A stretch of DNA of 62,052 nt, the filler included, from Candidatus Omnitrophota bacterium (GTDB lineage Bacteria; Omnitrophota; Gorgyraeia; Zapsychrales; JBDRMG01), in the NCBI GenBank assembly GCA_043812495.1. It is 7 parts of 7 records of this genome, joined end to end, with 100 filler letters (N's around TTAATTAATTAA, not from the genome) between each part and the next. Parts side by side here need not be neighbours in the genome. Positions count along the whole stretch, not along the records: positions 1 to 13,263 come from JBDRMG010000019.1; 6 more parts are not named here. One strand, given 5' to 3'. Below, piece after piece: positions 1-13,363 of the stretch. The notes beneath the pieces were generated by a model. The model did not search any database, was not told the origin of the DNA, and saw only the letters and a list, made by a program, of their open reading frames with translations. The translations under genes and the position numbers were made by a program. Positions within the stretch are counted from its first letter, which is position 1, and each line of letters begins with the position of its first letter.

Positions 1-2
1 CT

Positions 3-3000
3 GATGCGAAGAATACGAGCAAGCTCTATCAAATCTGTATTTAATAGATAACCTTGAGAAGTTTTGACAGCACGGTATTCGTTTTGGCTTAGAATGTCTT
101 TTATCTGTTTGATTTTTTCAAGAGGAACATCCAGAAAAAATAGGCGAGATTCGATGATATTGAGTAGAGTGGCATTGATGGCGTAGCCTGGCCTGACCGC
201 AGGCGGTGCGGTTTTTAAAGGTGCCGTGAATTCTTCATCGAAAATTTCCTCGTCCTCTCCGATTTCAATGTGACTTAAAAGTTGTTCACATTCTGTCGCC
301 ATATTCAAATAGTCGGCCGCCTTGAGGATGCTCTCGCGTATTCTTTGATAATGGCGCGGATAATGCCAGAGGGCTTTTTCCAGGAGTTCGGATAGAGTCT
401 CTTGCGTTATCCGATCATAAATCATGACAATTTGGCGGCCGCGGTTCGCCCATTCTTTTGGCAACCGCGAAGAACGCAAAGTCATATCAATGATAAAATC
501 CGCTTGGCTGCGGTCCGGATCGATCAAATAGCGGTCATGGCGGCTGTTGTATTCGGCAAAATCAACGGCATAACGCGAGAGCGCCTCCAAGCGTTCGATC
601 TCTTCTCTTTCGACGAAAATATGGATATCTCCTTTAAATCCTTCATCGGTCAAGGGACGGCCAAACCGGCCATAGGGAAGATGGACAATGAGAACATCGT
701 ATTTCGTTTTGTAATAATCAACCATCTTTTGGATATGATCAACGCGATGTTTGTTATCCAAAAACAGAGCCACGGCATAAGCGTCTGCGCTTCCTTTGCC
801 GGTGATGGCTCCCTTAATGCCGTCCTCAAAGGCTCCTTTCGGGAAAGGTTCCATATCCCAATCAAATTCACTGGGATCAAGCATGATGATTTTGATATCC
901 TTTCCTGAAAGACCTTCCGAAAGCCTCTTGGCAAAAGCAGGACCTTGGGCCCCTGGACGGCCGGTCATGCGAATAACGATTTTCGGAGTTTTCGATTGTC
1001 GCACTAAAACTTGATTGTATATTCGGTCAAAAGCCTCTTTCGGACTTAAGGCTTCCTTATCAGAAGGATAGGGATTGCGGTAAATCGGCACAACATGAAA
1101 TCCTTTTAAAGAACAAAGATCCTGCTCTAATGCATCGCCAGGGAACATCGGCCCGACATAGTAGTCCGGTTCAAGCCCATCCCTCTGCTCCGCATCGATA
1201 ATTTCATTTAAAGCATCTTTATCTTCCTGCCCTTCTCCCATGGTCAGTTTTGCCGCCAAAGCGCGATATTTGACCAATTGCTCCTCTGTTGGAATCTTGC
1301 CTTGAGCCGAAGCTTTTTGAGACAACAGATACTCATCTCTTAATTTTTCCAACGCCCCCATGATCGCTGGATTATCACGCACAGAACCCCTGCGCCTGTT
1401 GTGGAACACCATCGCCACCCCGAATCCGAGCATCATCACTACCGCCGCCAGGAGGGAGTCGGGGGATGTGAAATCAAAGCTTGGGACGCCATGGGGCAAG
1501 AATGATACACCTAAAAGCTCACCGGATTTTCCGCTGTTGGAATCTTCTCCTGTCAATTCTCCAAGAACTTCTTCGGCGAGGCGCCGAACTTCGGGGAACC
1601 TCTCTGAGAATTTCACATCACCAACGATCTCTTTTATAAGACCCAGCGTCTTTTCATCCCGCAGCCTTAACGCGCGGATGACCTCCAAAATCTCGATTTT
1701 TCCTTCACTAAAAACTTTATCCAGAATGGCGTCCAGGGCCTCCACCATAAGTTCGGTCAGTTCCTGAAATTCTTCTTTTGTAAATCGACCTTTCCATTCA
1801 AGAATAATCCTCGGCGCCAGGGGATAATCGTACCCTCCGCATCGATCTGTGATTTTGTATTTTACGCAGAGCTTAAGTTGTTCTTTAAGAAGACGAACGT
1901 GTTCCTGATGCGTAAAACGAAAATCCGGCCGCATATCAGCTTTATGAATATTAGGATTCTCAAGATTATAATCTATAAAGTACCGGATTAAGTTCTGGCT
2001 TTTTCTGTCAAATCCCATACGTTTTAATTTTCTCGCATAGACCTGCATACTCAATATAACAAACGGATCAAAAGCTCGCAGAGCCGTCAGAGAGTAAGAG
2101 GCCATCATAGACGGCATAGCCAGTTCATTCAAAGAAAATCGGCTGGGTTGGTTGTAGCTAAAGGCATACTCAAGAAAGGCCTTAATGAGTCGTTTATAGT
2201 TTTCGGGAAATCTCAGGGCCCATTTTTCTTGGCGGGGTCTTTGATAAAGATAGGGATCGCCTTGGAGTTCATTCTTCCATGGATTGATCCGCTCGATATA
2301 ATCATCGACCATTCTTTCCTCTTCTTTGTAGCTTATGCCCTCGATCGCCTCTTCCGGGTTTGTTGTTCTTCTAAACAAGCTGTCATCCATTTGAACCTCG
2401 ATATCGAAAGATACAAGCGTAAAGCGGTTTTTCCAATTATCAGGAAGCACATCGAACTTCAGATGACCTGGTTTCATCGCAAAAATAACGCCCAAATCTT
2501 CAGAGATAGCAAATTTATTTTCTTCAGAATCTTTCGCGATGTTCCATGCGGGCTTACCCATACCATTGAAGGCAAAGACTCGTTTGGTAAAGTCAGGTTC
2601 ATAAATATACATCAGCTCAAAAACCGAACCGGCGTAACGCGCATTGATCTCTCTGGCTGCCCTTCGGTCAATGAATGATTCATTGACCGGATAAACCATG
2701 GCCCATAAGAGAAATATTTTCTTATTTTCACGGCAGACCTTTTGGAAAGCGGTTCTGTCTGTATCATCGTTAATAGATCCCTCGGGATGTTTTTTAAGGA
2801 GATCATTGACGTAGCGAATTGCATCCGTTAATCCGCCATCTTTTTCGTTTTTGTCCTGAGGGAAACGATGGACCATGCCCAGCGCCATTGCGCATCCTGC
2901 CATCACCATCCCCGCCGCCAGGAGGAAGCAGGGGGAGGCGAAGTCAAAGTTAAAAATATCGGAAAAATTGCCGACCCCAAGACAGATACCGTTTTCAAAC

Positions 3001-6000
3001 CTTGCCTTGCTTGAGGCATCAGAGCTCGGATTTGTATCTTCTGCTATTTGAATGACGCAGGCCATTAAATTCTGTCCGGGATCGACTTCGGCGTAGCTAA
3101 CCGAAAACTCATAAATAGCCGGCTGAAAAGAAGCGGCATACAGATATTCATTTCTCACAAGGCCTAGATTGATAAGGAATTCATCGAAAGCGGCATCGAC
3201 AAAGGTCAAATACTCGATAACCCGGATACAGTTACTGGCGATAAAGCCTGCGACTCTGCCATCCCTTTGACCTTCCTCGTCTGTTAACAGTTGATCGAAG
3301 TGATGCGCGCGACAAGCGGCGTGTTGTATTTTTAAACGAAGATCATCATCGGCGATGTCCCCTGGATCAATAAGCGCCATCTTGACAATGCCAATCGTGT
3401 GAGACCCGTCTCCCGCTAAGTAGTATTCTCCTTCGGGTAACCGGCTTCCCGTGACTTCATCTAAAAGACTTTGCATGTCTTTTGAAAGATTCAAAAATGG
3501 AGCAAAAAGAATTGTTTTCCCTTCCCGGGTGAAGAATGTATTTCCGCTAGCTTCAAAAACAAGCCGAATTTCCCGCCCCTCTGATTTTTGAAAAACATTG
3601 CCGCCCTTTTCGCCAGCTCTTTTTCTTTTGAATATGCTCCAGATGCCAACGCCCATTATTATCAGCACCGCCGCCAAAAGGATTTCGAGGGAGGTGAGGA
3701 GAAAATCAAGAGGAATGACAATATCAAGTCTTTTGCCATCATTTTTACTTCTTGACGAAGCGTCATTTTTCAAAGCAGCCTGCGCAACCCTAGTGATTTC
3801 CTGTTTATCCACCTCAACATAGCTGGCTTCATAAAGAAAGCGCAACTGTTTCATGAGCCCACCAATGTCAGTCTGGCACAGACGATGAAGCGAAGTAAAA
3901 ACAGGACCCATCCATTTTTCTTCTGTCTCGTCAAAATGAAACATCATGTCATGAAATCGAAGGGGATCGAAGAAAACAAAATGTCCACAATCAGAAAATA
4001 CTTTAAAGAGCTCAAGTGACCCTCGGACAATGTCCCTTCTTGCTTGAATCGCGACCGAAGACTCGCGATGGGAAACATGAAGAAGATCATGGTAATCCCT
4101 AAAACCGCCGAGCCATTGTTCGCTGTAGAATTCAAAATTAGCAACCTTCGCAAAAGCGCCAAACCTTGGAATAAGCGAAGTCTTTGAGCTGACGGTCTGA
4201 AGGAAATCGACATAACCTTCCTTAAATTGTCCCCGGGCAGCCTTAAGGGCCATTTCGTATATCGACTGATCAGCAAGCTCAATACGCGCATAATAAACCT
4301 GGGTAAATGCATCCTCGGAAACAAAACTATAGCCGACTTTAATCTTTCCTTTTAGATTGCAATCTTTCTTGCCAAACAGACGCGCGAGTGATTTAAGCAG
4401 AAATCTTCTTTGTCTGAATAATTGTTGAATATCACAAGCGTCTGGCCCAGCACTTTGGCTATACACAAGAGGATCTTGCAGATTAGTTTTCATTCTGGTT
4501 ACTTCTATTTCTAGCGGATCCCCTTGTTCATCTTTAAAATTCTTCATGATCCCCACAATCCCAATCCCCATCATCACCAACACCACCGCCAGCATGGATT
4601 CGGGAGAGGTGAAGGAGAAATCAAAGCCTAAAGGCAGAACAATTTTGTAATCTTGTTTGTCCTCGTCTTCTTCCGGATAATCGCGCATAGAATCAAAGCG
4701 GACCCTGCCTCTTTCGCCCTCTTTATGCGTCAAGAGGATTTCACTCATCATGGCATAAGCGGGAATCAAAACACCCCTTTTTCTTAGTTCACCAACAGTT
4801 GTTTGGATGATAACGACATCGTCCCGAGAGGGGTTGCTGTGGAAAACACGGGCTGCCCTTTTTGCATCTATAAAGCCGCTTTCACCCACTCCCCAGTTTG
4901 ATTGATTAACGCTCATGGTCCCGGGAAGTCCGGCATACGGCCGCATAACACTGCGGTAAACACGAACATCGTCAGGAATCAACTGGAGATCGAGCATGTC
5001 AATGATGCGAACGATTTCTTCTGATTTCTGGATGGCGCCGCGGGAAGGGATTTTTGATGTGCCGGAGGAATGATCAATGGAAATGGGAACATTGCTCTTT
5101 AACTTGACTCTTACGGCTTGATCGCCTCCAGCGTCTATGAGAAAATCGACAATCGCCTGTAAATTATCATATTCGATATCATCGGACCTTAGAACTTCCA
5201 GGATCAAAGAGCGTATAGCGCCTAAGCTGATATATTGCCCGGCGGCCCTTAGGCGCACCTCTTCTCTCAATTTGAGAATTCGTTCTCGCTCAAACAAAAG
5301 GGGCCTGATCCCCCGACCGATGCCTATCTTTTCAGCCCATAAAACAAATTGTTTAATATAAAATTCCCGCGCCTTTTGAGAATCGAACTCAACAAACAGC
5401 AAATTTTCCAAAACGCCTCTAAGACGTAATAAATCCAATCCCCATGCCTCCGATTCATCCTCTTTATTATGCGCAATAGCCATCGCCACCCCAAAGCCCA
5501 CCATCACTAAAAGCGCCCCCAGCATGGATTCGGGGGAGGTGAGGGTGAAGTCAAAACCAATAAAACCTCTAAATTCTCTAACTGAATTTTTTCTATCTAA
5601 ATCTTTCTGCGCTATAACACCCCAAGCTAAAAGATTATTCTGAGAATCGTTAACATGAATAGTGACGATGTCTTCCAGTAATCCAAACCCATGTTTCTTC
5701 AAGAATGACCTTATCTCTTGTTCATCTTGAAATACCCGCCTTTGCAAAAATTCAAATAATTCCTTAGCTTCTTGCACATTTTCTATCTTCTGCTCGGTCT
5801 TGCTTATTAACCGTTCACCCTCACTGATTCTTTCAGGCAAAGGACGTAAGACATAAGCATTTTCGCCTAATTCAGGTTTGTGGACATAGCATAACTCAAG
5901 AGCGGCCTTCCCCAAAAGCATAAGTTCGTGTTTCGCTACATCATAATTGATTCTATTTATGCTATATGATATTAAACCAAATTCATTAATGCTGATCTCA

Positions 6001-9000
6001 GGAATCTCTTGTCCAATGGCCATCTTTAAATAATTCAGAATAAACTCTAAAATTGTCAATTGCAGGGGAGCATCTTCTGCTGTTCCGCTTAATAAAAATG
6101 AATCAGGATGATGTAGGATTAATATAACCTTTCCGTTTGGCTTAAGAATTCTGCTTGCCTCTTGAAAGGCATCATTTTTCTTCATATACGATAAAGAGAA
6201 TGAAAAAATAACGCCATCAGAAAATTCATCACCAAAAGGCATTTGCTCAGCTTTTGCAACTCGATGTCGAGGATCACCTTTTTTATCAAAATAGGCATCA
6301 ACTGAATAGGTTGTCATTTGGGAATTTTTTCCCTCAATGTCTTTGGAAAGCTTGCTATCTGCCGAGCCAATATCAACGAGGACTGCTTTGGGTTTTGTTA
6401 TATGGGTGCTTACGGCGCTGAGTATAAAACTTCTAGCATGTTTGAAGGGTTCGGCATCAATGCCAAAAGAAATATTCGTGTTATGGTCCGATTTCTCTCC
6501 GTTTCTGGAATGTACCATCGCCCAAACCCCAATCCCAAGCATAAAGAGAATTGCCCCCACCATCGATTCCATGGAGGCGACGCCAAAATCAAAGAGAATC
6601 ATGTGATTTCGTAAATGCTCCCCTGGCTCATCAGAAGAGAGGATGGGATAATCTCTAAAATCACTGCCGGCGACGTGTAAATGTCCTCCGGGTTTGGCAA
6701 CTGATCTTATTTCTTTAAATAATCTCGCTTTTATTGTTTCGTCGTGCATCTGCCCTATGACACGGTTAATGACCAATAGATCGACTTCCTTAAGGAGCGC
6801 TGAAAATGCCGAGGACGGCATCTCGCATGCGATGAGCCGAATATTTCTGTTAAACTCATCGGGACGTGCATTGAATTCATCCATGACATCGAGCCGTAAT
6901 TTTACAATAATACCATTCCTGGCCTTGTTATCACTCAGAGCCGTCAAAATGTCATATCCCTTTTTAAGTCTTTGTTCGGCTCCGCGAATGACTGTTTCGT
7001 TTTTATCCATTCCTATAAATTCAAGCTCAAATTCCTCAAAATCCGATATGGATCGTTTCAGGCCGCGCCTAACCAACGTCTTCCAGCTGATGATTTCTTG
7101 TCCGAACCCGCACCCAGCTATCAGAATATTTATTTTTCGATTACTCGTTTTTCTTTTTTCATTCAGGATGCATCGGATAATATTATCGAAATCGACGACG
7201 TTATATTGCTCTCGTAAAAAATAGCTTTCCGCTTGCGTTTCTCCGACCAGCGCAAGATGCTTTAAGAAAACATCGAACATACCCAAAAGGAGTCGATCCG
7301 TGCCCTTGGCTAACATATTCAAAACCCGATCATAGTTCCCTTGATATTTCCGACAGAAGAGGTCTGTGTAACTAAAATATTTTAGAAATTGTCCCGTTAT
7401 CCTTTTGTCTATGCCCCGCTCTTCGAATTGGCGGCCAAGCGTACCTCTCATCGCTATATATATTTCTGATTCATACTTTTCTGCAAAATCCTCATACCCC
7501 AGTAAATTCGGATATAGGCTTTCATCCCTTCCCCTTTTTGTCCATTCTTCCCTAAAGGATTGAAGTGGGTCATCGGATTTTTTTACCCTCACCATCATTG
7601 CCACTCCAACCCCAAGTATCATCAACACCGCCGCCAGCAGGAATTCGGGGGAGGGGAGGGTGAGATTAAAGGGAACTGCGGGCAAGAGGAGATTGACAGC
7701 GCTCGGAGCGTATGATATGCTCTTTTTAGATATATTCCCGGAATCTAACAAATTTGACAGAAATCTTAGAGGCCAAGACGTTATGAAAGTCAATAATCTT
7801 TTAGATAGAATCGTCGCCAATCCCGATATCCAGCACGGCAAACCATGCGTCAAGGGCACGCGCACCCCTGTATATGTTGTATTGGAGGCATTGTCCTTAG
7901 GATTAACGCCGGATAAAATCAAGGAAGAATACCCTCCCCTGACAGATGAAGATATCCAAGCCTGCCTTTCTTTCGCAGCGCTCCTTGCCAACGAAGAAGA
8001 ATCCCCTTTACGGCTTAAGACATGAGACTTCTTTTGGATGCCGATGTTCCCCGTTCTTTTGGCCATAGGCTTAAGTCCGAGGGCCACGAAGTTGCCGATG
8101 TCCGAGATATATCCAAAATTCCTCTGAAAGACGAAGCAATTTATAAGCTCGCTATTGATGAGCGAAGAACCTTGATTACCCGTGATTTGGATTTCAGCAA
8201 CATTCTTCTGTATCCACCAAAACCTACCTTTGGCATAATCGTCCTTAGGACCTACCAATTGTCGACCGATGGAATGTTCGAGGTGCTTCGACAATCGCTC
8301 CAAAAGACAACAGAGGATAAGCTCCGAGGAACGCTTGTTATCGTCCAAATAGACCGTCTGCGTTTTTATCGTTAACACCGGCACGCTCATCATCCATATC
8401 ATTAAAATTCCAACTCCCGCCGCCATCCCCGCCGCGAGGAAGAAGTCGGGGGAGGTGAGGGCAAAGTCAAAAGGAATCATAAGGCTGCTTATTGAAGTCG
8501 AACCGGAACCACCCGAAGAGATTACAATATGCTTACGCGTATACTCTAAGACAACCCTCATGACATCTTGAGCATATCGTTCAGTACATCTTCCTTCGAT
8601 TGGCTCTGCAAGAAGAACATCTATTCTTTGCATCAAAGGTTCTATTTTTTGCGGTGAAAGCCTGTGAACTGCTCTGATAAGGCATATCTTGTTATTCTCT
8701 TCTAATTGATCGGGATCAATCTCACAAACAGGAGAAATTTGATAAAGCAATTGAAAGACACGTTCTGTATTTAATTCAACAGTGACTCTTGCGATATCAT
8801 CAAAGGAAATAATCGGTTCATCACTATGCAATGATATAAAACTATTGAAGAGCTTAGTAATCCATTCTTCACCATGCTTAAGTCCAAACGTAATAGGTAC
8901 CTCATTGAATAATCGGCCAGCATACGCAGGGTCTTTCTGGATAAGCTCAATGAATATCGGTTTTACCCTATTTGTGTAGAGCTCCACAGGCGCATGGGCA

Positions 9001-12000
9001 TCATAATAACAACTACAAATTTCTAAAAGGGCGGCATGGACTAATTTGATCCAAAATAGACTGCCGTCTTTTGGTTTTGAGCCATCAGAGAAATGGACAA
9101 GCTCTACCAAGGATGTATTGTTGATGATTTCCCGGCTTACCATTTGTATGATTTCATCAGGGCCATCATCAATGGTGACAAATACGATGGAAGATGCGAT
9201 GAGAAGATCTCTGTGTTCCTGCCAATCCAGATCCAATTCTTCAAAGAACTCCATGGCCGCAAAAAGTCCTCGGCGTTCGCCATCCCAGCCTCTTCTAAGG
9301 TAAAAAATGTGAACATCTTCCAGCCCACATTCTCCCGCTTTTTGGTTTAATCCTCTGTACATACCTTCATGAAGCCCCTTAGGTATCCTCCAATCAAACT
9401 GCAAGGATATTAAATGCTCAAGATAATCTCTTTTTATTTCTATGGGAAGACCAGAGGATCTGGCTGCTTTGACATATTCAATGAGTTCTTCATGATGGGC
9501 TTTAAAGTATTCTTCGCTTGCTTTAAAGGCTGCTTGGCGGGCTTGTTCTTGAGTAAGGCCTTGTGTTAATGCTTTTAATCTTTCCGCTCCCTGACAATCA
9601 AAGATATCTGAAAGGACAACGGCAGGAATGTTGTCCTCAAGAAGCCTCCAGCTAATCGTAAAGACAATGACATCAGGTTTCTTTCTTACCTCTATAGTGA
9701 ACACTTCTTGTCTTGCTTCAGGGATAAGTACCACCTCTATGGACTGATCAGAGGGAGCATGTACGAGGACTCCCTTAAGCAACTCTTCTATTCTGCCTGG
9801 TAAGAGTTCCCTTTCGTGGTGATCAAGATCAGCTATCCCCCCTGGGCCTTTGGTTATTCGAATAATCTCAAAAGAAGCGTTCCCTATTTCTCTTCTTAAC
9901 GTAACAGCAGGCTTTGGTGTTTTCTTAAAAACCAAACCAGGATAATCAAAAGTACACACTATCCCTAAAATCCCAACCCCAACCAAAAGCCCTATGATCA
10001 GCCAGCCGGAAAGGTCACCTGATAAAATGAATATATGATTTATGGGGTCTCCTTCGCCTGGTTCAGTCTTGCTTTCATTATCCTTTGCCTCAGAAGATTC
10101 TTCTTTAAATGTGAAATCAGCGGCCAGGGCTTCTTTCAGGGTGGGAAGTTTTAGAATCGGCGCATGTCCGCTAAAATAAGAATCCACCAAAGCCTTGGCC
10201 CAACGCGCCTCTAGATACCCCTGATCAATAATGACCCTATCAGTCTCCACCTGCTCAGTATTATTTGGCGATACGACTTTTATGCGGCCGGTTTGTCGAT
10301 CAATTTTGACCACACCGCCATCTGAGGAAAACCCGCTAATTTCATCCGCGGAGAATATCATCTTGTACTCAAATGAGAATCTTCCTACACATTTGGTTAA
10401 CAGCAAAATTGTGACGAACATTTGAAGAATCAAGTAATCGCGCATGGCTTCATTTTGGAACCTGGTTAATTCTGTACCGTCCGCGGCCAGAAGACGAATA
10501 TCTTCTTTTGCCAAGCGATAACCCCATGGACCAAGATAGATCGCAATCTTATGCTTTACGGCAAACACCTCTACATCTTTAAAACCGATGCGTCTTGACA
10601 CTCCTTCATATTGTTTGGAATCAAAACAGGTCGTCATGTCCCTGATGCCCGTTTCTTCTGGTTGAATCGCCATGGGTTCAGGTAAATCGAAAAGAAACTG
10701 GTTAAACTCACTTACGGGAAAGCTTGGATGCCGTACTGTCCATCTCAAACTGGTTTGGTCTTCTGCGCGCTTAACCGTAATCTCAGACAAAGAACCCTGC
10801 CATTGGTCGTGAATAATCTTCATTTGAGCCAAGAAAATGTCAAATTCCGTGTGGAAATCCTTAAGCCGCCCTTCGGCTTTTAGTTGTTCGCCGTACCATC
10901 CGAAGAACTTTTCTCTTATGTCTTCGAAAATGGCATAAGCCGTATCCTTGAGCGTGCCAAACAGGATATCAAGCATAACGACCAAGGCCGGTGTGTCGCC
11001 TTGATTTGCGAATAAATTTGCAAACTCTTTTGTTTCTCTAGACTTCTCTTGTTTAACAGCCTGAAATGTTTCTCTCGCTGAAACCATATTCCCTCTTAAG
11101 CGGAATGTTTTCTCAAGTCTTAGATCATCGAAAAATTCAGCTAATTCTTCATAATCTCGCGGCTCTAAATCAAAAGGAAAAATCAAAAAGCGCCAGAAAG
11201 TCAAATCATCATCATACGCTTGCTGATTTCCTTTTAGAACTTCGAGCAGGCCTTCGTCTGTCTTTTCCATGAATTTACTTGCGAAATATAGCATGTCTCG
11301 GTAAACGGAACTTATGGAAAAGATTGTCTCGTCCCAAGCCTGCGTCGAAAGGGAAGCGAAAGCATCTTCCGGTAAGCGCAAAAGAGCCACCTCCGGGACA
11401 AGAACAAGAGCCTTTAACCCTGTTAGGAAGGCCATCCATTGTTCTTTCATCATGTCTTCTTTTCCTCTTTGAGGGAATAAAACCTCGTATAACTGAGCGG
11501 CTTTGCTTCCCGGTTCTTCTTTGGCTTTCTTTTCCAAATTTGAGCGCAAGGTTAAATAATTGTTCTCTTCTGTACCAATGAGATCGGATTGAGCATAAGA
11601 CCCACCGAAAGTCTCCTGAAAGACATCGAAAAGAATCTCTGGAACAATGTAGGCTCGCTGACTAACCTTTTTTATGATACCGTCGAATGTTTCACGAGTT
11701 CTGGCCAACATTTGAGCCTTGCGCGCTTGGGCTTCTTCTATTTCTTTCTTGAGTGTTTCCAGGCATTCGTTTGCCTTTCTTAATTTTTCTTCCGGAGTGG
11801 TAGATTCGTTTATCTCGTTAAAGTAAGTCAAAAGACTTGTATGGGTCGCTTCCTCTTTCTGATCTCTCTCTCCTCCCAGATCCTCCCGAGTCCTCCAAAG
11901 AGAATCTAAACGAATTAAAATTCCGGTAATCTGGCCGAAACGTTTGACATCTGCGTCTAATCTATTCTCTGTTCGTTCAAAATCATCATATCGTTCAACG

Positions 12001-13262
12001 GAAACGATAGACTCGATGTCGGCGCGGAACCTTTTGGCCAATGAGCCGGGGATGCTTTGATTCAGCTGAGGTAAATCAATGTCTCTGTATTTGTTTTCAT
12101 GTTCGCTGAGTTGCAAAGAAAGCACATTGCGCGCCTTAATCCTCTTGTCTTTGATTCTGTTGAATATGGATCGGACAGAATCACGAATACTTTTCAGGCC
12201 TGCAAAGGCATACGAAAAAGCCTCTGCGTCGTGTCCGTCGCTTGAGTAGAAATGGTCTAACGGGCTATTCCGGGCCTGCCACGCCTTCCTTCGATCGGTA
12301 ATGGTACTTAATTCATCGTCTAAAATGACGCCCCATTCTTTGGCCTGGTCAATCATGGCCTGAATATTTTCCTCCATATGGTGTAACCGTTTCTCGTTTT
12401 TCTTCGCGTCTTTGGTCAGGGGCCTATCGTTAGGGAATTTTCGTTCGCAGGGCAAATAAGGATCTTGAGCTTTTTCATCCTGAAAGGTCTTCTGTCTGTG
12501 GTGCTTTTCTGTAATACGGCGGACTTCACTTACCAGCGCTTCTTCGGATAAAACCTCTCCAAAGAGTTGCCTGACCCTCTCGATGACCTCATCTGTAATC
12601 CACGCGGTCATGGACGAAAGCCCTTCGGGTCCTCGGAAATCACTCCAAAAAGTTGTTATTAGTTTTCGGCTTTCCTCTTCGGCGCGTTCACGGACGATTT
12701 TGATCTGCCGGCCGATCCAATATTGGTCGGCATCCACTTCTTCTTGTTCCTCTGAGGTCTCAACTTCTTCTTCAGGCTTGACGTGACTTTGGATGGCCAT
12801 TTCTAAGGTAAGACCCTTTTTAAGTTTAATACGTTCAATTTCCCTAAATCGCTCTGGAGATAGAATGGTCGGATCGGCAGCCTCTTTGCCTTGGAATTGA
12901 GAGAAGAAAGCTTTGGCTTGCGTGATATCTGCATTATACGCAAGCCCCCCCTTATCTTGATGCGAATCGATCGTCGCCAAATAAATCGTGTTATGATAAA
13001 GATTGATGACATAAAAAATAGATTGCTTGGGAATACGGATGTGACCGACGTTGGGAACATCGATATTCTTAAACCGCCCGATGACTTTATTTGCCACATC
13101 CTGCGTGTACGCCATATAATGGATAATCCAAATCTTTGCGGCAACAACAGGCTTTAATACCGCCGGCAAAGTATCCCAATCCTGCATGAATCGTTTGGAG
13201 GGGATAATGTCAAAGGATTGCTGCTGATTGGCCCGTACCATGGCGAGGACCGCCAGCGCCAA
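3..13262 (-). CDS. Giant modular multi-domain protein, partial at both ends (>=4420 aa), with hydrophobic repeats separating unrelated domains
   Basis: Manual reading of + strand triplets starting at positions divisible by 3 from 3 to 13260 found no TTA/CTA/TCA, so this minus frame has no stop. It runs off the window edge and into the contig end, which probably explains its absence from the ORF track. The translation contains recognisable motifs (methyltransferase, CheR-like, kinase-like). Confidence 0.93.
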   Translation of the reverse strand, partial: MALAVLAMVRANQQQSFDIIPSKRFMQDWDTLPAVLKPVVAAKIWIIHYMAYTQDVANKVIGRFKNIDVPNVGHIRIPKQSIFYVINLYHNTIYLATIDSHQDKGGLAYNADITQAKAFFSQFQGKEAADPTILSPERFREIERIKLKKGLTLEMAIQSHVKPEEEVETSEEQEEVDADQYWIGRQIKIVRERAEEESRKLITTFWSDFRGPEGLSSMTAWITDEVIERVRQLFGEVLSEEALVSEVRRITEKHHRQKTFQDEKAQDPYLPCERKFPNDRPLTKDAKKNEKRLHHMEENIQAMIDQAKEWGVILDDELSTITDRRKAWQARNSPLDHFYSSDGHDAEAFSYAFAGLKSIRDSVRSIFNRIKDKRIKARNVLSLQLSEHENKYRDIDLPQLNQSIPGSLAKRFRADIESIVSVERYDDFERTENRLDADVKRFGQITGILIRLDSLWRTREDLGGERDQKEEATHTSLLTYFNEINESTTPEEKLRKANECLETLKKEIEEAQARKAQMLARTRETFDGIIKKVSQRAYIVPEILFDVFQETFGGSYAQSDLIGTEENNYLTLRSNLEKKAKEEPGSKAAQLYEVLFPQRGKEDMMKEQWMAFLTGLKALVLVPEVALLRLPEDAFASLSTQAWDETIFSISSVYRDMLYFASKFMEKTDEGLLEVLKGNQQAYDDDLTFWRFLIFPFDLEPRDYEELAEFFDDLRLEKTFRLRGNMVSARETFQAVKQEKSRETKEFANLFANQGDTPALVVMLDILFGTLKDTAYAIFEDIREKFFGWYGEQLKAEGRLKDFHTEFDIFLAQMKIIHDQWQGSLSEITVKRAEDQTSLRWTVRHPSFPVSEFNQFLFDLPEPMAIQPEETGIRDMTTCFDSKQYEGVSRRIGFKDVEVFAVKHKIAIYLGPWGYRLAKEDIRLLAADGTELTRFQNEAMRDYLILQMFVTILLLTKCVGRFSFEYKMIFSADEISGFSSDGGVVKIDRQTGRIKVVSPNNTEQVETDRVIIDQGYLEARWAKALVDSYFSGHAPILKLPTLKEALAADFTFKEESSEAKDNESKTEPGEGDPINHIFILSGDLSGWLIIGLLVGVGILGIVCTFDYPGLVFKKTPKPAVTLRREIGNASFEIIRITKGPGGIADLDHHERELLPGRIEELLKGVLVHAPSDQSIEVVLIPEARQEVFTIEVRKKPDVIVFTISWRLLEDNIPAVVLSDIFDCQGAERLKALTQGLTQEQARQAAFKASEEYFKAHHEELIEYVKAARSSGLPIEIKRDYLEHLISLQFDWRIPKGLHEGMYRGLNQKAGECGLEDVHIFYLRRGWDGERRGLFAAMEFFEELDLDWQEHRDLLIASSIVFVTIDDGPDEIIQMVSREIINNTSLVELVHFSDGSKPKDGSLFWIKLVHAALLEICSCYYDAHAPVELYTNRVKPIFIELIQKDPAYAGRLFNEVPITFGLKHGEEWITKLFNSFISLHSDEPIISFDDIARVTVELNTERVFQLLYQISPVCEIDPDQLEENNKICLIRAVHRLSPQKIEPLMQRIDVLLAEPIEGRCTERYAQDVMRVVLEYTRKHIVISSGGSGSTSISSLMIPFDFALTSPDFFLAAGMAAGVGILMIWMMSVPVLTIKTQTVYLDDNKRSSELILCCLLERLSKHLEHSIGRQLVGPKDDYAKGRFWWIQKNVAEIQITGNQGSSLINSELINCFVFQRNFGYISDIGNFVALGLKPMAKRTGNIGIQKKSHVLSRKGDSSSLARSAAKERQAWISSSVRGGYSSLILSGVNPKDNASNTTYTGVRVPLTHGLPCWISGLATILSKRLLTFITSWPLRFLSNLLDSGNISKKSISYAPSAVNLLLPAVPFNLTLPSPEFLLAAVLMILGVGVAMMVRVKKSDDPLQSFREEWTKRGRDESLYPNLLGYEDFAEKYESEIYIAMRGTLGRQFEERGIDKRITGQFLKYFSYTDLFCRKYQGNYDRVLNMLAKGTDRLLLGMFDVFLKHLALVGETQAESYFLREQYNVVDFDNIIRCILNEKRKTSNRKINILIAGCGFGQEIISWKTLVRRGLKRSISDFEEFELEFIGMDKNETVIRGAEQRLKKGYDILTALSDNKARNGIIVKLRLDVMDEFNARPDEFNRNIRLIACEMPSSAFSALLKEVDLLVINRVIGQMHDETIKARLFKEIRSVAKPGGHLHVAGSDFRDYPILSSDEPGEHLRNHMILFDFGVASMESMVGAILFMLGIGVWAMVHSRNGEKSDHNTNISFGIDAEPFKHARSFILSAVSTHITKPKAVLVDIGSADSKLSKDIEGKNSQMTTYSVDAYFDKKGDPRHRVAKAEQMPFGDEFSDGVIFSFSLSYMKKNDAFQEASRILKPNGKVILILHHPDSFLLSGTAEDAPLQLTILEFILNYLKMAIGQEIPEISINEFGLISYSINRINYDVAKHELMLLGKAALELCYVHKPELGENAYVLRPLPERISEGERLISKTEQKIENVQEAKELFEFLQRRVFQDEQEIRSFLKKHGFGLLEDIVTIHVNDSQNNLLAWGVIAQKDLDRKNSVREFRGFIGFDFTLTSPESMLGALLVMVGFGVAMAIAHNKEDESEAWGLDLLRLRGVLENLLFVEFDSQKAREFYIKQFVLWAEKIGIGRGIRPLLFERERILKLREEVRLRAAGQYISLGAIRSLILEVLRSDDIEYDNLQAIVDFLIDAGGDQAVRVKLKSNVPISIDHSSGTSKIPSRGAIQKSEEIVRIIDMLDLQLIPDDVRVYRSVMRPYAGLPGTMSVNQSNWGVGESGFIDAKRAARVFHSNPSRDDVVIIQTTVGELRKRGVLIPAYAMMSEILLTHKEGERGRVRFDSMRDYPEEDEDKQDYKIVLPLGFDFSFTSPESMLAVVLVMMGIGIVGIMKNFKDEQGDPLEIEVTRMKTNLQDPLVYSQSAGPDACDIQQLFRQRRFLLKSLARLFGKKDCNLKGKIKVGYSFVSEDAFTQVYYARIELADQSIYEMALKAARGQFKEGYVDFLQTVSSKTSLIPRFGAFAKVANFEFYSEQWLGGFRDYHDLLHVSHRESSVAIQARRDIVRGSLELFKVFSDCGHFVFFDPLRFHDMMFHFDETEEKWMGPVFTSLHRLCQTDIGGLMKQLRFLYEASYVEVDKQEITRVAQAALKNDASSRSKNDGKRLDIVIPLDFLLTSLEILLAAVLIIMGVGIWSIFKRKRAGEKGGNVFQKSEGREIRLVFEASGNTFFTREGKTILFAPFLNLSKDMQSLLDEVTGSRLPEGEYYLAGDGSHTIGIVKMALIDPGDIADDDLRLKIQHAACRAHHFDQLLTDEEGQRDGRVAGFIASNCIRVIEYLTFVDAAFDEFLINLGLVRNEYLYAASFQPAIYEFSVSYAEVDPGQNLMACVIQIAEDTNPSSDASSKARFENGICLGVGNFSDIFNFDFASPCFLLAAGMVMAGCAMALGMVHRFPQDKNEKDGGLTDAIRYVNDLLKKHPEGSINDDTDRTAFQKVCRENKKIFLLWAMVYPVNESFIDRRAAREINARYAGSVFELMYIYEPDFTKRVFAFNGMGKPAWNIAKDSEENKFAISEDLGVIFAMKPGHLKFDVLPDNWKNRFTLVSFDIEVQMDDSLFRRTTNPEEAIEGISYKEEERMVDDYIERINPWKNELQGDPYLYQRPRQEKWALRFPENYKRLIKAFLEYAFSYNQPSRFSLNELAMPSMMASYSLTALRAFDPFVILSMQVYARKLKRMGFDRKSQNLIRYFIDYNLENPNIHKADMRPDFRFTHQEHVRLLKEQLKLCVKYKITDRCGGYDYPLAPRIILEWKGRFTKEEFQELTELMVEALDAILDKVFSEGKIEILEVIRALRLRDEKTLGLIKEIVGDVKFSERFPEVRRLAEEVLGELTGEDSNSGKSGELLGVSFLPHGVPSFDFTSPDSLLAAVVMMLGFGVAMVFHNRRRGSVRDNPAIMGALEKLRDEYLLSQKASAQGKIPTEEQLVKYRALAAKLTMGEGQEDKDALNEIIDAEQRDGLEPDYYVGPMFPGDALEQDLCSLKGFHVVPIYRNPYPSDKEALSPKEAFDRIYNQVLVRQSKTPKIVIRMTGRPGAQGPAFAKRLSEGLSGKDIKIIMLDPSEFDWDMEPFPKGAFEDGIKGAITGKGSADAYAVALFLDNKHRVDHIQKMVDYYKTKYDVLIVHLPYGRFGRPLTDEGFKGDIHIFVEREEIERLEALSRYAVDFAEYNSRHDRYLIDPDRSQADFIIDMTLRSSRLPKEWANRGRQIVMIYDRITQETLSELLEKALWHYPRHYQRIRESILKAADYLNMATECEQLLSHIEIGEDEEIFDEEFTAPLKTAPPAVRPGYAINATLLNIIESRLFFLDVPLEKIKQIKDILSQNEYRAVKTSQGYLLNTDLIELARILRI
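1410..1478 (-). repeat. Linker repeat R1: FDFTSPDSLLAAVVMMLGFGVAM
   Basis: Translated in the giant frame; followed by VFHNRRRG. Confidence 0.9.
2874..2948 (-). repeat. Linker repeat R2: FDFASPCFLLAAGMVMAGCAMALGM
   Basis: Same frame; DNA core ccgccgccaggaggaagcagggggaggcgaagtcaaag closely matches R1. Confidence 0.9.
3639..3710 (-). repeat. Linker repeat R3: LDFLLTSLEILLAAVLIIMGVGIW
   Basis: Same frame; followed by SIFKRKR. Confidence 0.85.
4545..4625 (-). repeat. Linker repeat R4: FDFSFTSPESMLAVVLVMMGIGIVGIM
   Basis: Same frame; DNA core cagcatggattcgggagaggtga nearly identical to R5. Confidence 0.9.
5481..5555 (-). repeat. Linker repeat R5: FDFTLTSPESMLGALLVMVGFGVAM
   Basis: Same frame. 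Confidence 0.9.
6516..6593 (-). repeat. Linker repeat R6: FDFGVASMESMVGAILFMLGIGVWAM
   Basis: Same frame, more diverged. Confidence 0.85.
7593..7670 (-). repeat. Linker repeat R7: FNLTLPSPEFLLAAVLMILGVGVAMM
   Basis: Same frame; followed by VRVKK. Confidence 0.9.
7693..7721 (+). promoter_or_regulatory. Sigma70-type promoter for the TA operon with a palindromic spacer (possible operator)
   Basis: TTGACA (7693-7698), 17-nt spacer, TATGCT (7716-7721) preceded by TGn; spacer contains CGCTC-G-GAGCG. Confidence 0.75.
7783..8025 (+). CDS. DUF433-family antitoxin (80 aa)
   Basis: RIVANPDIQHGKPCVKGTRTPVYVVLEALSLG...EEYPPLTDEDIQACLSFAA is the DUF433 pattern. ATG 7783 follows AGAGG and the promoter, so the track's upstream GTG start is unlikely. 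Confidence 0.92.
   Translation: MKVNNLLDRIVANPDIQHGKPCVKGTRTPVYVVLEALSLGLTPDKIKEEYPPLTDEDIQACLSFAALLANEEESPLRLKT
8022..8375 (+). CDS. DUF5615 / VapC45-like PIN-domain toxin
   Basis: MRLLLDADVP...GHEVADV...DEAIYKLA...RTLITRDLDF...GIIVLR; ATGA overlap with the DUF433 gene. Confidence 0.9.
   Translation: MRLLLDADVPRSFGHRLKSEGHEVADVRDISKIPLKDEAIYKLAIDERRTLITRDLDFSNILLYPPKPTFGIIVLRTYQLSTDGMFEVLRQSLQKTTEDKLRGTLVIVQIDRLRFYR
8388..8471 (-). repeat. Linker repeat R8: FDFALTSPDFFLAAGMAAGVGILMIWMM
   Basis: Same frame; ends 12 nt from the toxin stop codon. Confidence 0.9.
9954..10041 (-). repeat. Divergent hydrophobic linker R9: HIFILSGDLSGWLIIGLLVGVGILGIVC
   Basis: Same frame; GVGI hydrophobic helix after a polar linker, no FDF..SP motif. 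Confidence 0.6.
13239..13262 (-). repeat. Probable truncated linker at contig end (LALAVLAM)
   Basis: Hydrophobic run ending in AM like the other copies; the contig breaks here. Confidence 0.55.
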
Positions 13263-13263
13263 A

Positions 13264-13363
13264 NNNNNNNNNNNNNNNNNNNNNNNNNNNNNNNNNNNNN
13301 NNNNNNNTTAATTAATTAANNNNNNNNNNNNNNNNNNNNNNNNNNNNNNNNNNNNNNNNNNNN
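13264..13363. other. Artificial contig spacer; identical spacers at 26872-26971, 33442-33541, 38427-38526, 40965-41064, 57603-57702
   Basis: N44-TTAATTAATTAA-N44, with stops in all six frames. Confidence 0.98.

Follow-up and report, generated by a model that had tools for sequence, protein, structure and literature searches.

A DUF433/DUF5615 toxin-antitoxin pair antisense within a giant open reading frame of an Omnitrophota bacterium, and related pairs across the phylum

Introduction

Pairs of a PIN-type toxin and a COG2442 (DUF433) protein were predicted as toxin-antitoxin (TA) systems by Makarova, Wolf and Koonin in 2009 (PMC2701414), and such systems are listed for Synechocystis (PMC4963859). 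Here, we report a pair of the same two families in a stretch of DNA of 62,052 nucleotides (the window) from Candidatus Omnitrophota bacterium (assembly GCA_043812495.1). The window consists of seven contigs from a single genome bin (G000; 66 contigs, 1.94 Mb), joined at 13264-13363 and five other places by paired runs of 44 N, across which neither open reading frames (ORFs) nor repeats can be read. Like the predicted PIN-COG2442 systems, the pair has the antitoxin gene first and the toxin gene second, coupled genes for 80 and 117 amino acids (aa), a promoter of its own and conserved acidic residues; unlike the described members, which stand free on chromosomes or plasmids, the window pair and 36 relatives are located inside a gene of the opposite strand.

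In sedentary chromosomal integrons, TA cassettes that bear their own promoters kill the cells that excise them (Richard et al. 2024, PMC13108822). The likeness to our locus is that a self-promoted TA pair sits as one unit among repeat-bounded modules, that TA pairs are enriched in the array and that cells losing the cassette are expected to die. The differences are that the repeats at our locus code for membrane helices and lack attC hairpins, that the "array" of the contig with the pair (C19, window 1-13263) is one continuous protein-coding frame without intermodule stops or separate ORFs (no search for an integrase was made), and that the cassette must keep its opposite strand stop-free. An earlier note on this DNA had drawn the integron likeness; it does not hold structurally, as the repeats are protein-coding, show no folding into DNA hairpins and have no separate ORFs between them. 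Genes embedded antisense in other genes are known from E. coli O157:H7 as single small ORFs that belong to no known family and whose coding status is disputed. Our locus shares with them a protein-coding gene wholly within a gene of the opposite strand; it differs in being a two-gene operon of defined families, with purifying selection seen by comparison and with openness of the host frame in dozens of loci.

The giant genes of Omnitrophota were described by West-Roberts et al. 2023 (10.1101/2023.11.21.568195) and in a 2026 preprint (10.64898/2026.06.07.730766); they resemble the frame around our pair in having thousands to tens of thousands of codons, many membrane helices and small genomes, within the same phylum. 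Opposite-strand genes inside giant ORFs are not described in the main text of either preprint, and the supplements may differ; likewise, a literature search yielded no account of TA pairs inside giant genes, and the preprint supplements could still list such genes. What is known, then, is the PIN-DUF433 pair and the giant genes; what is new is that the nested genes are identified as mobile TA cassettes on which the direction of selection can be measured. We interpret the window pair as a genuine, independently transcribed type II TA cassette of a lineage that lives backwards inside Omnitrophota giant genes, a reading to which we assign a probability of roughly 0.55.

Results

Contig C19 is in its entirety a single stop-free frame of the minus strand (3..13262, 4420 codons). 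The "TTG start" at 13262 is merely the end of the contig and was rejected as a gene start, and the frame is therefore counted open at both ends. Exact 141-nt end overlaps connect C19 with C35, C19 with C52 and C52 with C32, and along the joined C35/C19/C52/C32 the frame extends over at least 9316 codons and reaches no stop at either end; C32 (57703..62052, minus strand), all of which is one open frame of 1450 codons, is the probable upstream continuation of the giant ORF via C52. Stop-free frames of at least 1400 codons make up 303 kb or 15.6% of the G000 genome, and the longest, with 25,094 codons, fills a complete 75-kb contig. A frame of thousands of codons without stop is accompanied in C19 by numerous transmembrane helices, i.e., eight hydrophobic helices in a hydropathy scan, which coincide with the copies of a repeat (R). 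We take the stop-free frames of G000 for the giant genes known in Omnitrophota because G017, a relative of the same order, is Candidatus Omnitrophota bacterium UBA10147. The abstract of a 2023 giant-gene preprint reportedly names a divergent SecA DEAD-like domain in most full-length giants; the Pfam hits of the 4420-aa C19 piece, an ORF incomplete at both ends, include no match to SecA.

The pair occupies one slot of this frame (7671-8387, 717 bp) between two copies of the membrane-helix repeat, as the earlier note had it: R7 (7595..7675, minus strand, coding for ..FNLTLPSPEFLLAAVLMILGVGVAMMVRVKK..) is C-terminal to the slot as the giant protein is read, and R8 (8388..8476, minus strand, ..FDFALTSPDFFLAAGMAAGVGILMIWMM..) is N-terminal to it. 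Opposite to the entire TA cassette, the giant frame runs as a passenger segment of 239 codons (7671..8387, minus strand) with 0 stops, in phase on both sides, which bears out the same note; the remaining two minus frames have 11 and 12 stops there. Past R7, a methyltransferase-like module (6663..7229, minus strand; CheR-like/class I, with CheR at E 2e-5 and 24.6 bits vs a Pfam cut-off of 27) is followed by a module with a Methyltransf_11 domain (6120..6374, minus strand; E 7.5e-10, above cut-off). Since the latter is in the same frame, the giant frame is genuine coding sequence beyond the slot on its downstream side.

On the plus strand, the slot pair reads by its sequence as an intact type II TA-type operon with a DUF433 antitoxin, a PIN-like toxin, coupled genes and its own promoter. 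Both genes named in the earlier note have full-length Pfam matches. The DUF433 (COG2442) antitoxin-type gene (7783..8025, 80 aa) matches PF04255 at E 5.7e-22 over profile positions 1-56 of 56, and the DUF5615/PIN-like toxin-type gene (8022..8375, 117 aa) matches PF18480 at E 5.3e-25 over positions 1-109 of 110; antitoxin stop and toxin start overlap as ATGA (8022-8025). The antitoxin also weakly matches the DUF433 structure 2GA1 (E 0.008) and is 65-73% identical to seven clade homologues, 57% to that of locus L038 and 37-73% over ten other alignment rows. The toxin weakly matches PIN_10 (E 0.0017, under cut-off), and a sequence search found no solved structures for it. Residues D6, D37, D55 and D57 are invariant in an alignment of 11 toxins, and we take them to be the catalytic residues of the PIN domain.

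The sigma-70-type promoter TTGACA-17-TATGCT (7693..7721, plus strand; TTGACA at 7693-7698, TATGCT at 7716-7721, with TG before the -10 box) is where the earlier note placed it, with a palindromic spacer and 10 of 12 consensus matches. The motif on its own has no significance in the region (10 sites vs 6.0 +/- 2.5 in shuffles). Its weight comes from conservation at homologous loci: TTGACx-17-TAnnnT together with a GGAGG-type ribosome-binding site 5' of the antitoxin gene is present at 16 of 17 loci, nested or free (20 loci were tried, the antitoxin start could be placed in 17, and the exception, L034, has a spacing of 16). In the window, the candidate ribosome-binding site is AGAGG (7768..7772, plus strand), 10 nt 5' of the antitoxin ATG, where homologues have GGAGG. 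Inverted repeats at 7700..7723 (plus strand), namely CGCTC-G-GAGCG in the spacer (7700-7710) and the imperfect GGAGCGTA-TGA-TATGCTCT that overlaps the -10 box (7705-7723), are a candidate operator that may serve autoregulation.

For the selection test we used a pair of loci from the same clade, L132 (the cassette of G017, L132/L035) and L133 (metagenome); among close relatives of the window cassette, the metagenome scan yielded only 4 loci, the best with 61% protein identity. When the 8.3-kb loci L132 and L133 are compared (blastn), the alignment is limited to 669 nt of 86.8% identity, from about 10 nt 5' of the -35 box to the toxin TAA, and the giant-frame flanks, about 1300 residues on either side, have no similarity at E 1e-3. 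Among nested loci in general (blastp, E 1e-5), flank homology consists of scattered short matches only, with none for the window flanks. We conclude that the cassette forms a discrete unit and that the giant-gene contexts in which it is found are unrelated.

Within the unit, differences fall on codon positions 1, 2 and 3 as 5, 4 and 29 in the antitoxin and as 6, 5 and 25 in the toxin (third positions 29/38 and 25/36), and synonymous to non-synonymous codon changes are 26:8 and 23:9, respectively. Read in the giant frame, the changes are 20:13 over the antitoxin and 4:28 over the toxin. Protein identity is 91.5% for the TA proteins and 79.4% for the giant-frame peptide, which in homologues is conserved no further than the TA genes impose, and none of the 74 differences creates a stop in the giant frame. 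From the third-position bias and from the identity of the TA proteins against that of the peptide we conclude that purifying selection acts on the TA proteins and that all that is maintained in the giant frame is its openness; as the peptide changes freely, the giant gene needs an open frame here and no particular peptide. The claim in the earlier note that both strands are coding is thus upheld for the TA frames and for the continuity of the giant frame, and not for the amino acids of the giant-frame peptide, which are unconstrained. It is very probable that the same DNA encodes protein from both of its strands. As comparative evidence for bacterial DNA constrained as coding on both strands, a topic that is otherwise contested, the case is unusually strong.

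Chance does not account for the open minus frame across the cassette. Long codon-aligned antisense frames are common, and 6.5% of 117-codon windows of ordinary G000 genes are open in that frame; moreover, the bin is a fragmented metagenome-assembled genome (MAG) of 66 contigs, so one could think of an ordinary TA pair with an accidentally open antisense frame, or of misassembly. We give this almost no credence. The toxin codons are exactly antisense-aligned to the giant codons (phase 0), and for this reason the toxin must have no TTA, CTA or TCA; among its 17 Leu and 6 Ser codons there are indeed none, and TTA accounts for 17.8% of Leu codons genome-wide. In 20,000 synonymous resamplings with genome codon usage, the giant frame was open over both genes in 0.09% (P = 0.0009), over the toxin in 0.6% and over the antitoxin in 9.4%. 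Among free homologues with a guanine-cytosine (GC) content below 0.55, 0/21 have any antisense frame open over the toxin gene (19 are from other phyla and 2 from a MAG titled "Planctomycetia"). The 36 other nested places, from independent assemblies and with contigs of 57 to 269 kb included, also speak against an artefact.

Some open antisense frames outside this set were put aside as a presumed effect of high GC: a 965-codon frame over the homologue in L072, an actinobacterial locus of 71% GC, and frames of 134-419 codons over the toxin in L054, L059, L070 and L091 (GC at least 0.66). In three DNA sequencing runs nothing matched over the cassette; the same runs contain four 100%-identical pieces (151-256 nt) at 8484-9003 and one partial match of 37 nt, with 7 other letters, at 7006-7042. 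A search for RNA sequencing runs with the stretch found none, a result that has no bearing on whether it is expressed.

Searches with the toxin covered 60 related genomes, one genome per prokaryotic species, a 300-genome sample of the phylum and the metagenome scan. The related genomes gave 20 non-self toxin matches in 12 genomes, and a DUF433-type gene is directly upstream of the toxin at all 11 non-self loci with ORFs listed. Seventeen of these 20 same-order matches are nested on the opposite strand of frames that have 622 to more than 6600 codons and mostly fill the fetched stretch, and 3 are free. Nesting (antisense frames of at least 800 codons) was found for 13 of the 79 loci from the scan of species representatives, all 13 from Omnitrophota, from MAGs titled "uncultured Planctomycetales/-ia" or from an unnamed bacterium; five of them are the same places as nested loci of the same-order genomes. 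Across the phylum, 13/29 examined loci are nested (same order 2/6, same class 7/13, other classes 4/10). After deduplication, and with the metagenome locus L133 included, there are 36 distinct nested places besides the window, with host frames from 622 to at least 64,999 codons. Nesting on the same strand is absent: 0/24 non-nested Omnitrophota-type loci are inside a same-strand giant frame. Antisense TA nesting is rare in bacteria at large and routine in Omnitrophota, so that the earlier note, which called a nested antiparallel operon very rare, is right for the former and not for the latter.

The largest host is a plus-strand frame of genome G047 (G047:C1:20002-214998; loci L166-L173, L017 and L018), open for at least 64,999 codons (195 kb) with no end reached in the fetched stretch. 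Three DUF433/DUF5615 pairs are clustered in it within 17.7 kb (at 107-125 kb), and among its 38 antisense ORFs of at least 100 aa these three pairs are the only Pfam-positive ones.

In a quick maximum likelihood tree of 73 toxins, the window toxin belongs to a clade of 8, all nested and all in phase 0, with a support of 98 in the Shimodaira-Hasegawa-like approximate likelihood ratio test (SH-aLRT). The label "nested" changes 12 times on the tree, and well-supported branches force at least 3 of these changes; with shuffled labels the average is 21, and 0/500 shuffles were as low. These changes, together with a clade whose flanks are dissimilar, indicate that nesting has been gained or lost several times and is nevertheless inherited along cassette lineages. 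Relative to the giant codons, nested toxins are in phase 0 (n=10) or phase 1 (n=8) and never in phase 2; that only phases 0 and 1 are seen we ascribe to the fact that only the antisense orientation can lose stops via synonymous changes.

Within G000, PIN-like toxins are concentrated in giant frames. A scan of 281 antisense ORFs of at least 75 aa in the other giant-frame contigs found, as Pfam-positive nested genes, four PIN/PIN_3 genes and one transposase. The four are antisense at C65:10684-11323, C53:6282-6900, C42:6840-7292 and C42:9128-9842 (loci L112, L116 and L126), and whole-genome family searches showed that G000 has no other PIN or PIN_3 genes. A small overlapping upstream ORF (77-85 aa) accompanies 3/4 of them, and the upstream proteins of 77-79 aa are helical. 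There are two DUF5615 pairs, a nested one (C19) and a free one (C41). Altogether, giant frames contain 5/6 PIN-like toxin genes (DUF5615, PIN_3, PIN) in antisense, vs 15.6% of the DNA. In relatives, 11/30 PIN_3 loci are nested (two of them G000's own), in a single phase throughout. Since intergenic DNA is the easier target, the enrichment needs explaining, and suggests either that giant genes preferentially exchange such cassettes with one another or that they preferentially retain them.

Discussion

In our proposed model, the cassette would be a unit from just 5' of the -35 box through the toxin stop codon, which can reside in a giant gene because stop codons have been eliminated from its antisense strand. 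As that strand is stop-free, the giant gene would be read through and would gain a passenger loop of about 239 residues between two membrane helices; the model thus presumes that ribosomes translate the giant frame across this segment. Selection would act on the TA proteins and, on the opposite strand, on frame continuity alone. Retention by addiction is a known property of TA modules, and the cassette would persist mainly through its own addiction: with loss of the segment the labile antitoxin would be lost, and the remaining toxin would poison the cell. This supposes that the toxin is toxic and neutralised by the antitoxin, and that cells deleting the TA segment are killed. As a side effect, the part of the giant gene that carries the cassette may be locally stabilised.

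Several points weigh against this reading. The slot peptide varies freely, with the 4 synonymous vs 28 non-synonymous changes over the toxin. DNA identity among the eight R copies is 39-69% (R7 vs R8 58%, R4 vs R5 69%), which makes them poor substrates for homologous deletion and weakens a role in stabilisation. Nesting is not obligatory, with 16/29 loci free across the phylum and a second, free pair in G000 (C41). A broken toxin in genome G037 (L011/L023, G037:C15:21450-21641) has a TGA after codon 61 in an intact giant frame. We identified no mechanism of cassette movement. The PIN-COG2442/DUF433 pair itself has the status of a predicted TA system. Finally, structure prediction of the toxin-antitoxin complex gives weak support: the score is 0.55 and the highest among 3 controls 0.32, agreement between runs is at least 98% of contacts, and the partner has a predicted local distance difference test score (pLDDT) of at least 80. 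The mark for this score is reached by 116/157 solved complexes and 2/215 mismatched pairs; passing scores of up to 0.60, however, are held by only 18 of the 157 solved complexes and by both mismatches.

The earlier note saw in the pair a guard, i.e., a cassette retained for its benefit to the host, in that a costly modular giant gene is shielded from deletions in the manner of integron arrays. The enrichment of PIN-type genes in giant frames (5/6 in G000, 17/20 in relatives), several cassettes per giant ORF (the three of G047), and the integron precedent (PMC13108822) would agree with it, as would cassettes closely flanked on both sides by copies of a repeated membrane helix. The same note had proposed a search of other giant ORFs for antisense TA pairs flanked by the repeat: antisense pairs exist at the 36 places, and close flanking by such copies is present at 6/18 nested loci only; 5 further loci of those 18 have no membrane helix near the cassette. 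The premise of a repeat-rich, deletion-prone gene is weak, with R copies too diverged for obvious deletion-proneness, nor are the copies attC-like. We had tried an attC-like/integron reading of the R repeats and rejected it, as R4, R5, R7 and R8 (R7 and R8 on both strands) showed no DNA hairpin folding, with z of -0.56 to +0.44 vs shuffles. A duplication of target site or module on insertion was also rejected, as R7 and R8 are 58% identical and the closest pair is R4/R5 instead. Moreover, the G047 cassettes are clustered in about 18 kb of a 195-kb ORF, so that its whole length is unguarded; broken toxins in intact giant frames suggest that the giant gene is independent of toxins; and the cassette is a mobile unit with a phylogeny of its own, like a selfish element. 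Protection of the giant gene is plausible, yet we judge the guard unlikely, and a selfish cassette adapted to giant genes fits the data at least as well.

Orientation invites another explanation, regulatory coupling, in which giant-gene transcription would run into the convergent TA promoter or block it, or else pair with the TA mRNA; less antitoxin would then be available, and the PIN-like RNase would slow growth or trim RNA during synthesis of the giant protein. The orientation is convergent in every nested case, with the 0/24 on the same strand, the TA promoter is inside the giant transcription unit, and no terminator-like site was found on the plus strand 3' of the toxin gene. Furthermore, nested Pfam-positive genes are nearly all PIN-type nucleases (four PIN genes and one transposase in the 281 ORFs of G000, only DUF5615 and DUF433 in the 38 of G047). 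The antisense arrangement is, however, more simply explained as the sole orientation that synonymous changes can clear of stops; free copies of the same TA families occur in the same genomes, and the occurrence of the cassette in unrelated giant contexts runs contrary to a tailored link. Coupling is, in our opinion, quite improbable.

It could also be asked whether the giant frame is open yet untranslated through the slot, or consists of several genes, with only the plus strand truly coding. The lack of an amino acid constraint of its own in the slot peptide would fit. So would three Omnitrophota-type loci (L044-L046), where the TA pair is opposite to a 237-296-codon ORF in a chain of same-strand ORFs (157-549 codons) rather than to one giant frame; this chain may be a giant gene in pieces, or an unfused state or precursor. 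On the other hand, ribosomes entering upstream meet no stop codon and have to read on, the slot is in phase with Methyltransf_11 downstream, and continuity extends over the at least 9316 codons. The exclusion of stops at 36 other loci and over 74 substitutions is hard to explain unless translation matters. We hold an untranslated frame to be doubtful, with about as little weight as the coupling.

A picture wider than that of a TA cassette lineage residing in giant genes is that of "ORF-transparent" mobile cassettes of PIN-type TA pairs throughout Omnitrophota, with an opposite strand that is stop-free in a fixed phase, which would move in frame, be translated on both strands and act as sentinels against excision or deletion. 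This can be entertained only tentatively, at odds clearly below even; if true, giant genes would behave as protein-coding counterparts of integron arrays.

For practice, the annotation of Omnitrophota giant genes hides real genes, as gene callers that accept the giant ORF normally drop the nested TA pair, or the reverse. The locus links toxin-antitoxin biology with giant proteins and overlapping genes. It makes testable how a gene of 10 to 200 kb is kept intact and whether selfish addiction modules contribute to this, and the 717-bp slot is a compact experimental handle.

Additional observations

The R repeat has eight members, which code for a transmembrane helix FDFxLTSPE..LAA..M.G.G followed by basic residues. 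Over window 1409-8476 (minus strand), the eight helices of this one family always have the basic residues on the C-terminal side. Consecutive helices are separated by single modules of 250-490 aa, some of which are methyltransferase-like. If all eight helices were inserted the same way, the topology could not be satisfied by a single uncleaved chain.

The flanks of the cassette in L132 (3600-3690 and 4352-4520) contain short GC-rich hairpins, e.g., CCACTTCGGGAGTGG and GGCGAGGAGCCTCGCC, and repeated SSPVRP-coding motifs are in frame on either side; L133 has similar motifs. These hairpins and SSPVRP motifs of L132 might mark recombination sites.

At G003:C317:142-471, a PIN_3 gene has one TGA, and the antisense giant frame is still open.

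The transposase nested in G000 is IS630-like (C20:8421-9632, plus strand; L118:8479-9484) and is antisense inside an 11,223-codon frame, in two pieces of different frames. The pieces match HTH_33 (E 5e-20) and DDE_3 (E 1e-28), the element is single-copy in G000, and the giant frame opposite to it has 0 stops over the 1500 nt examined.

Type II secretion genes are reportedly found beside giant genes in Omnitrophota. In G000, T2SSG (E 6e-36) and T2SSF (E 2e-65) at C39:269-1982 (locus L130) adjoin a 2177-codon frame on the opposite strand.

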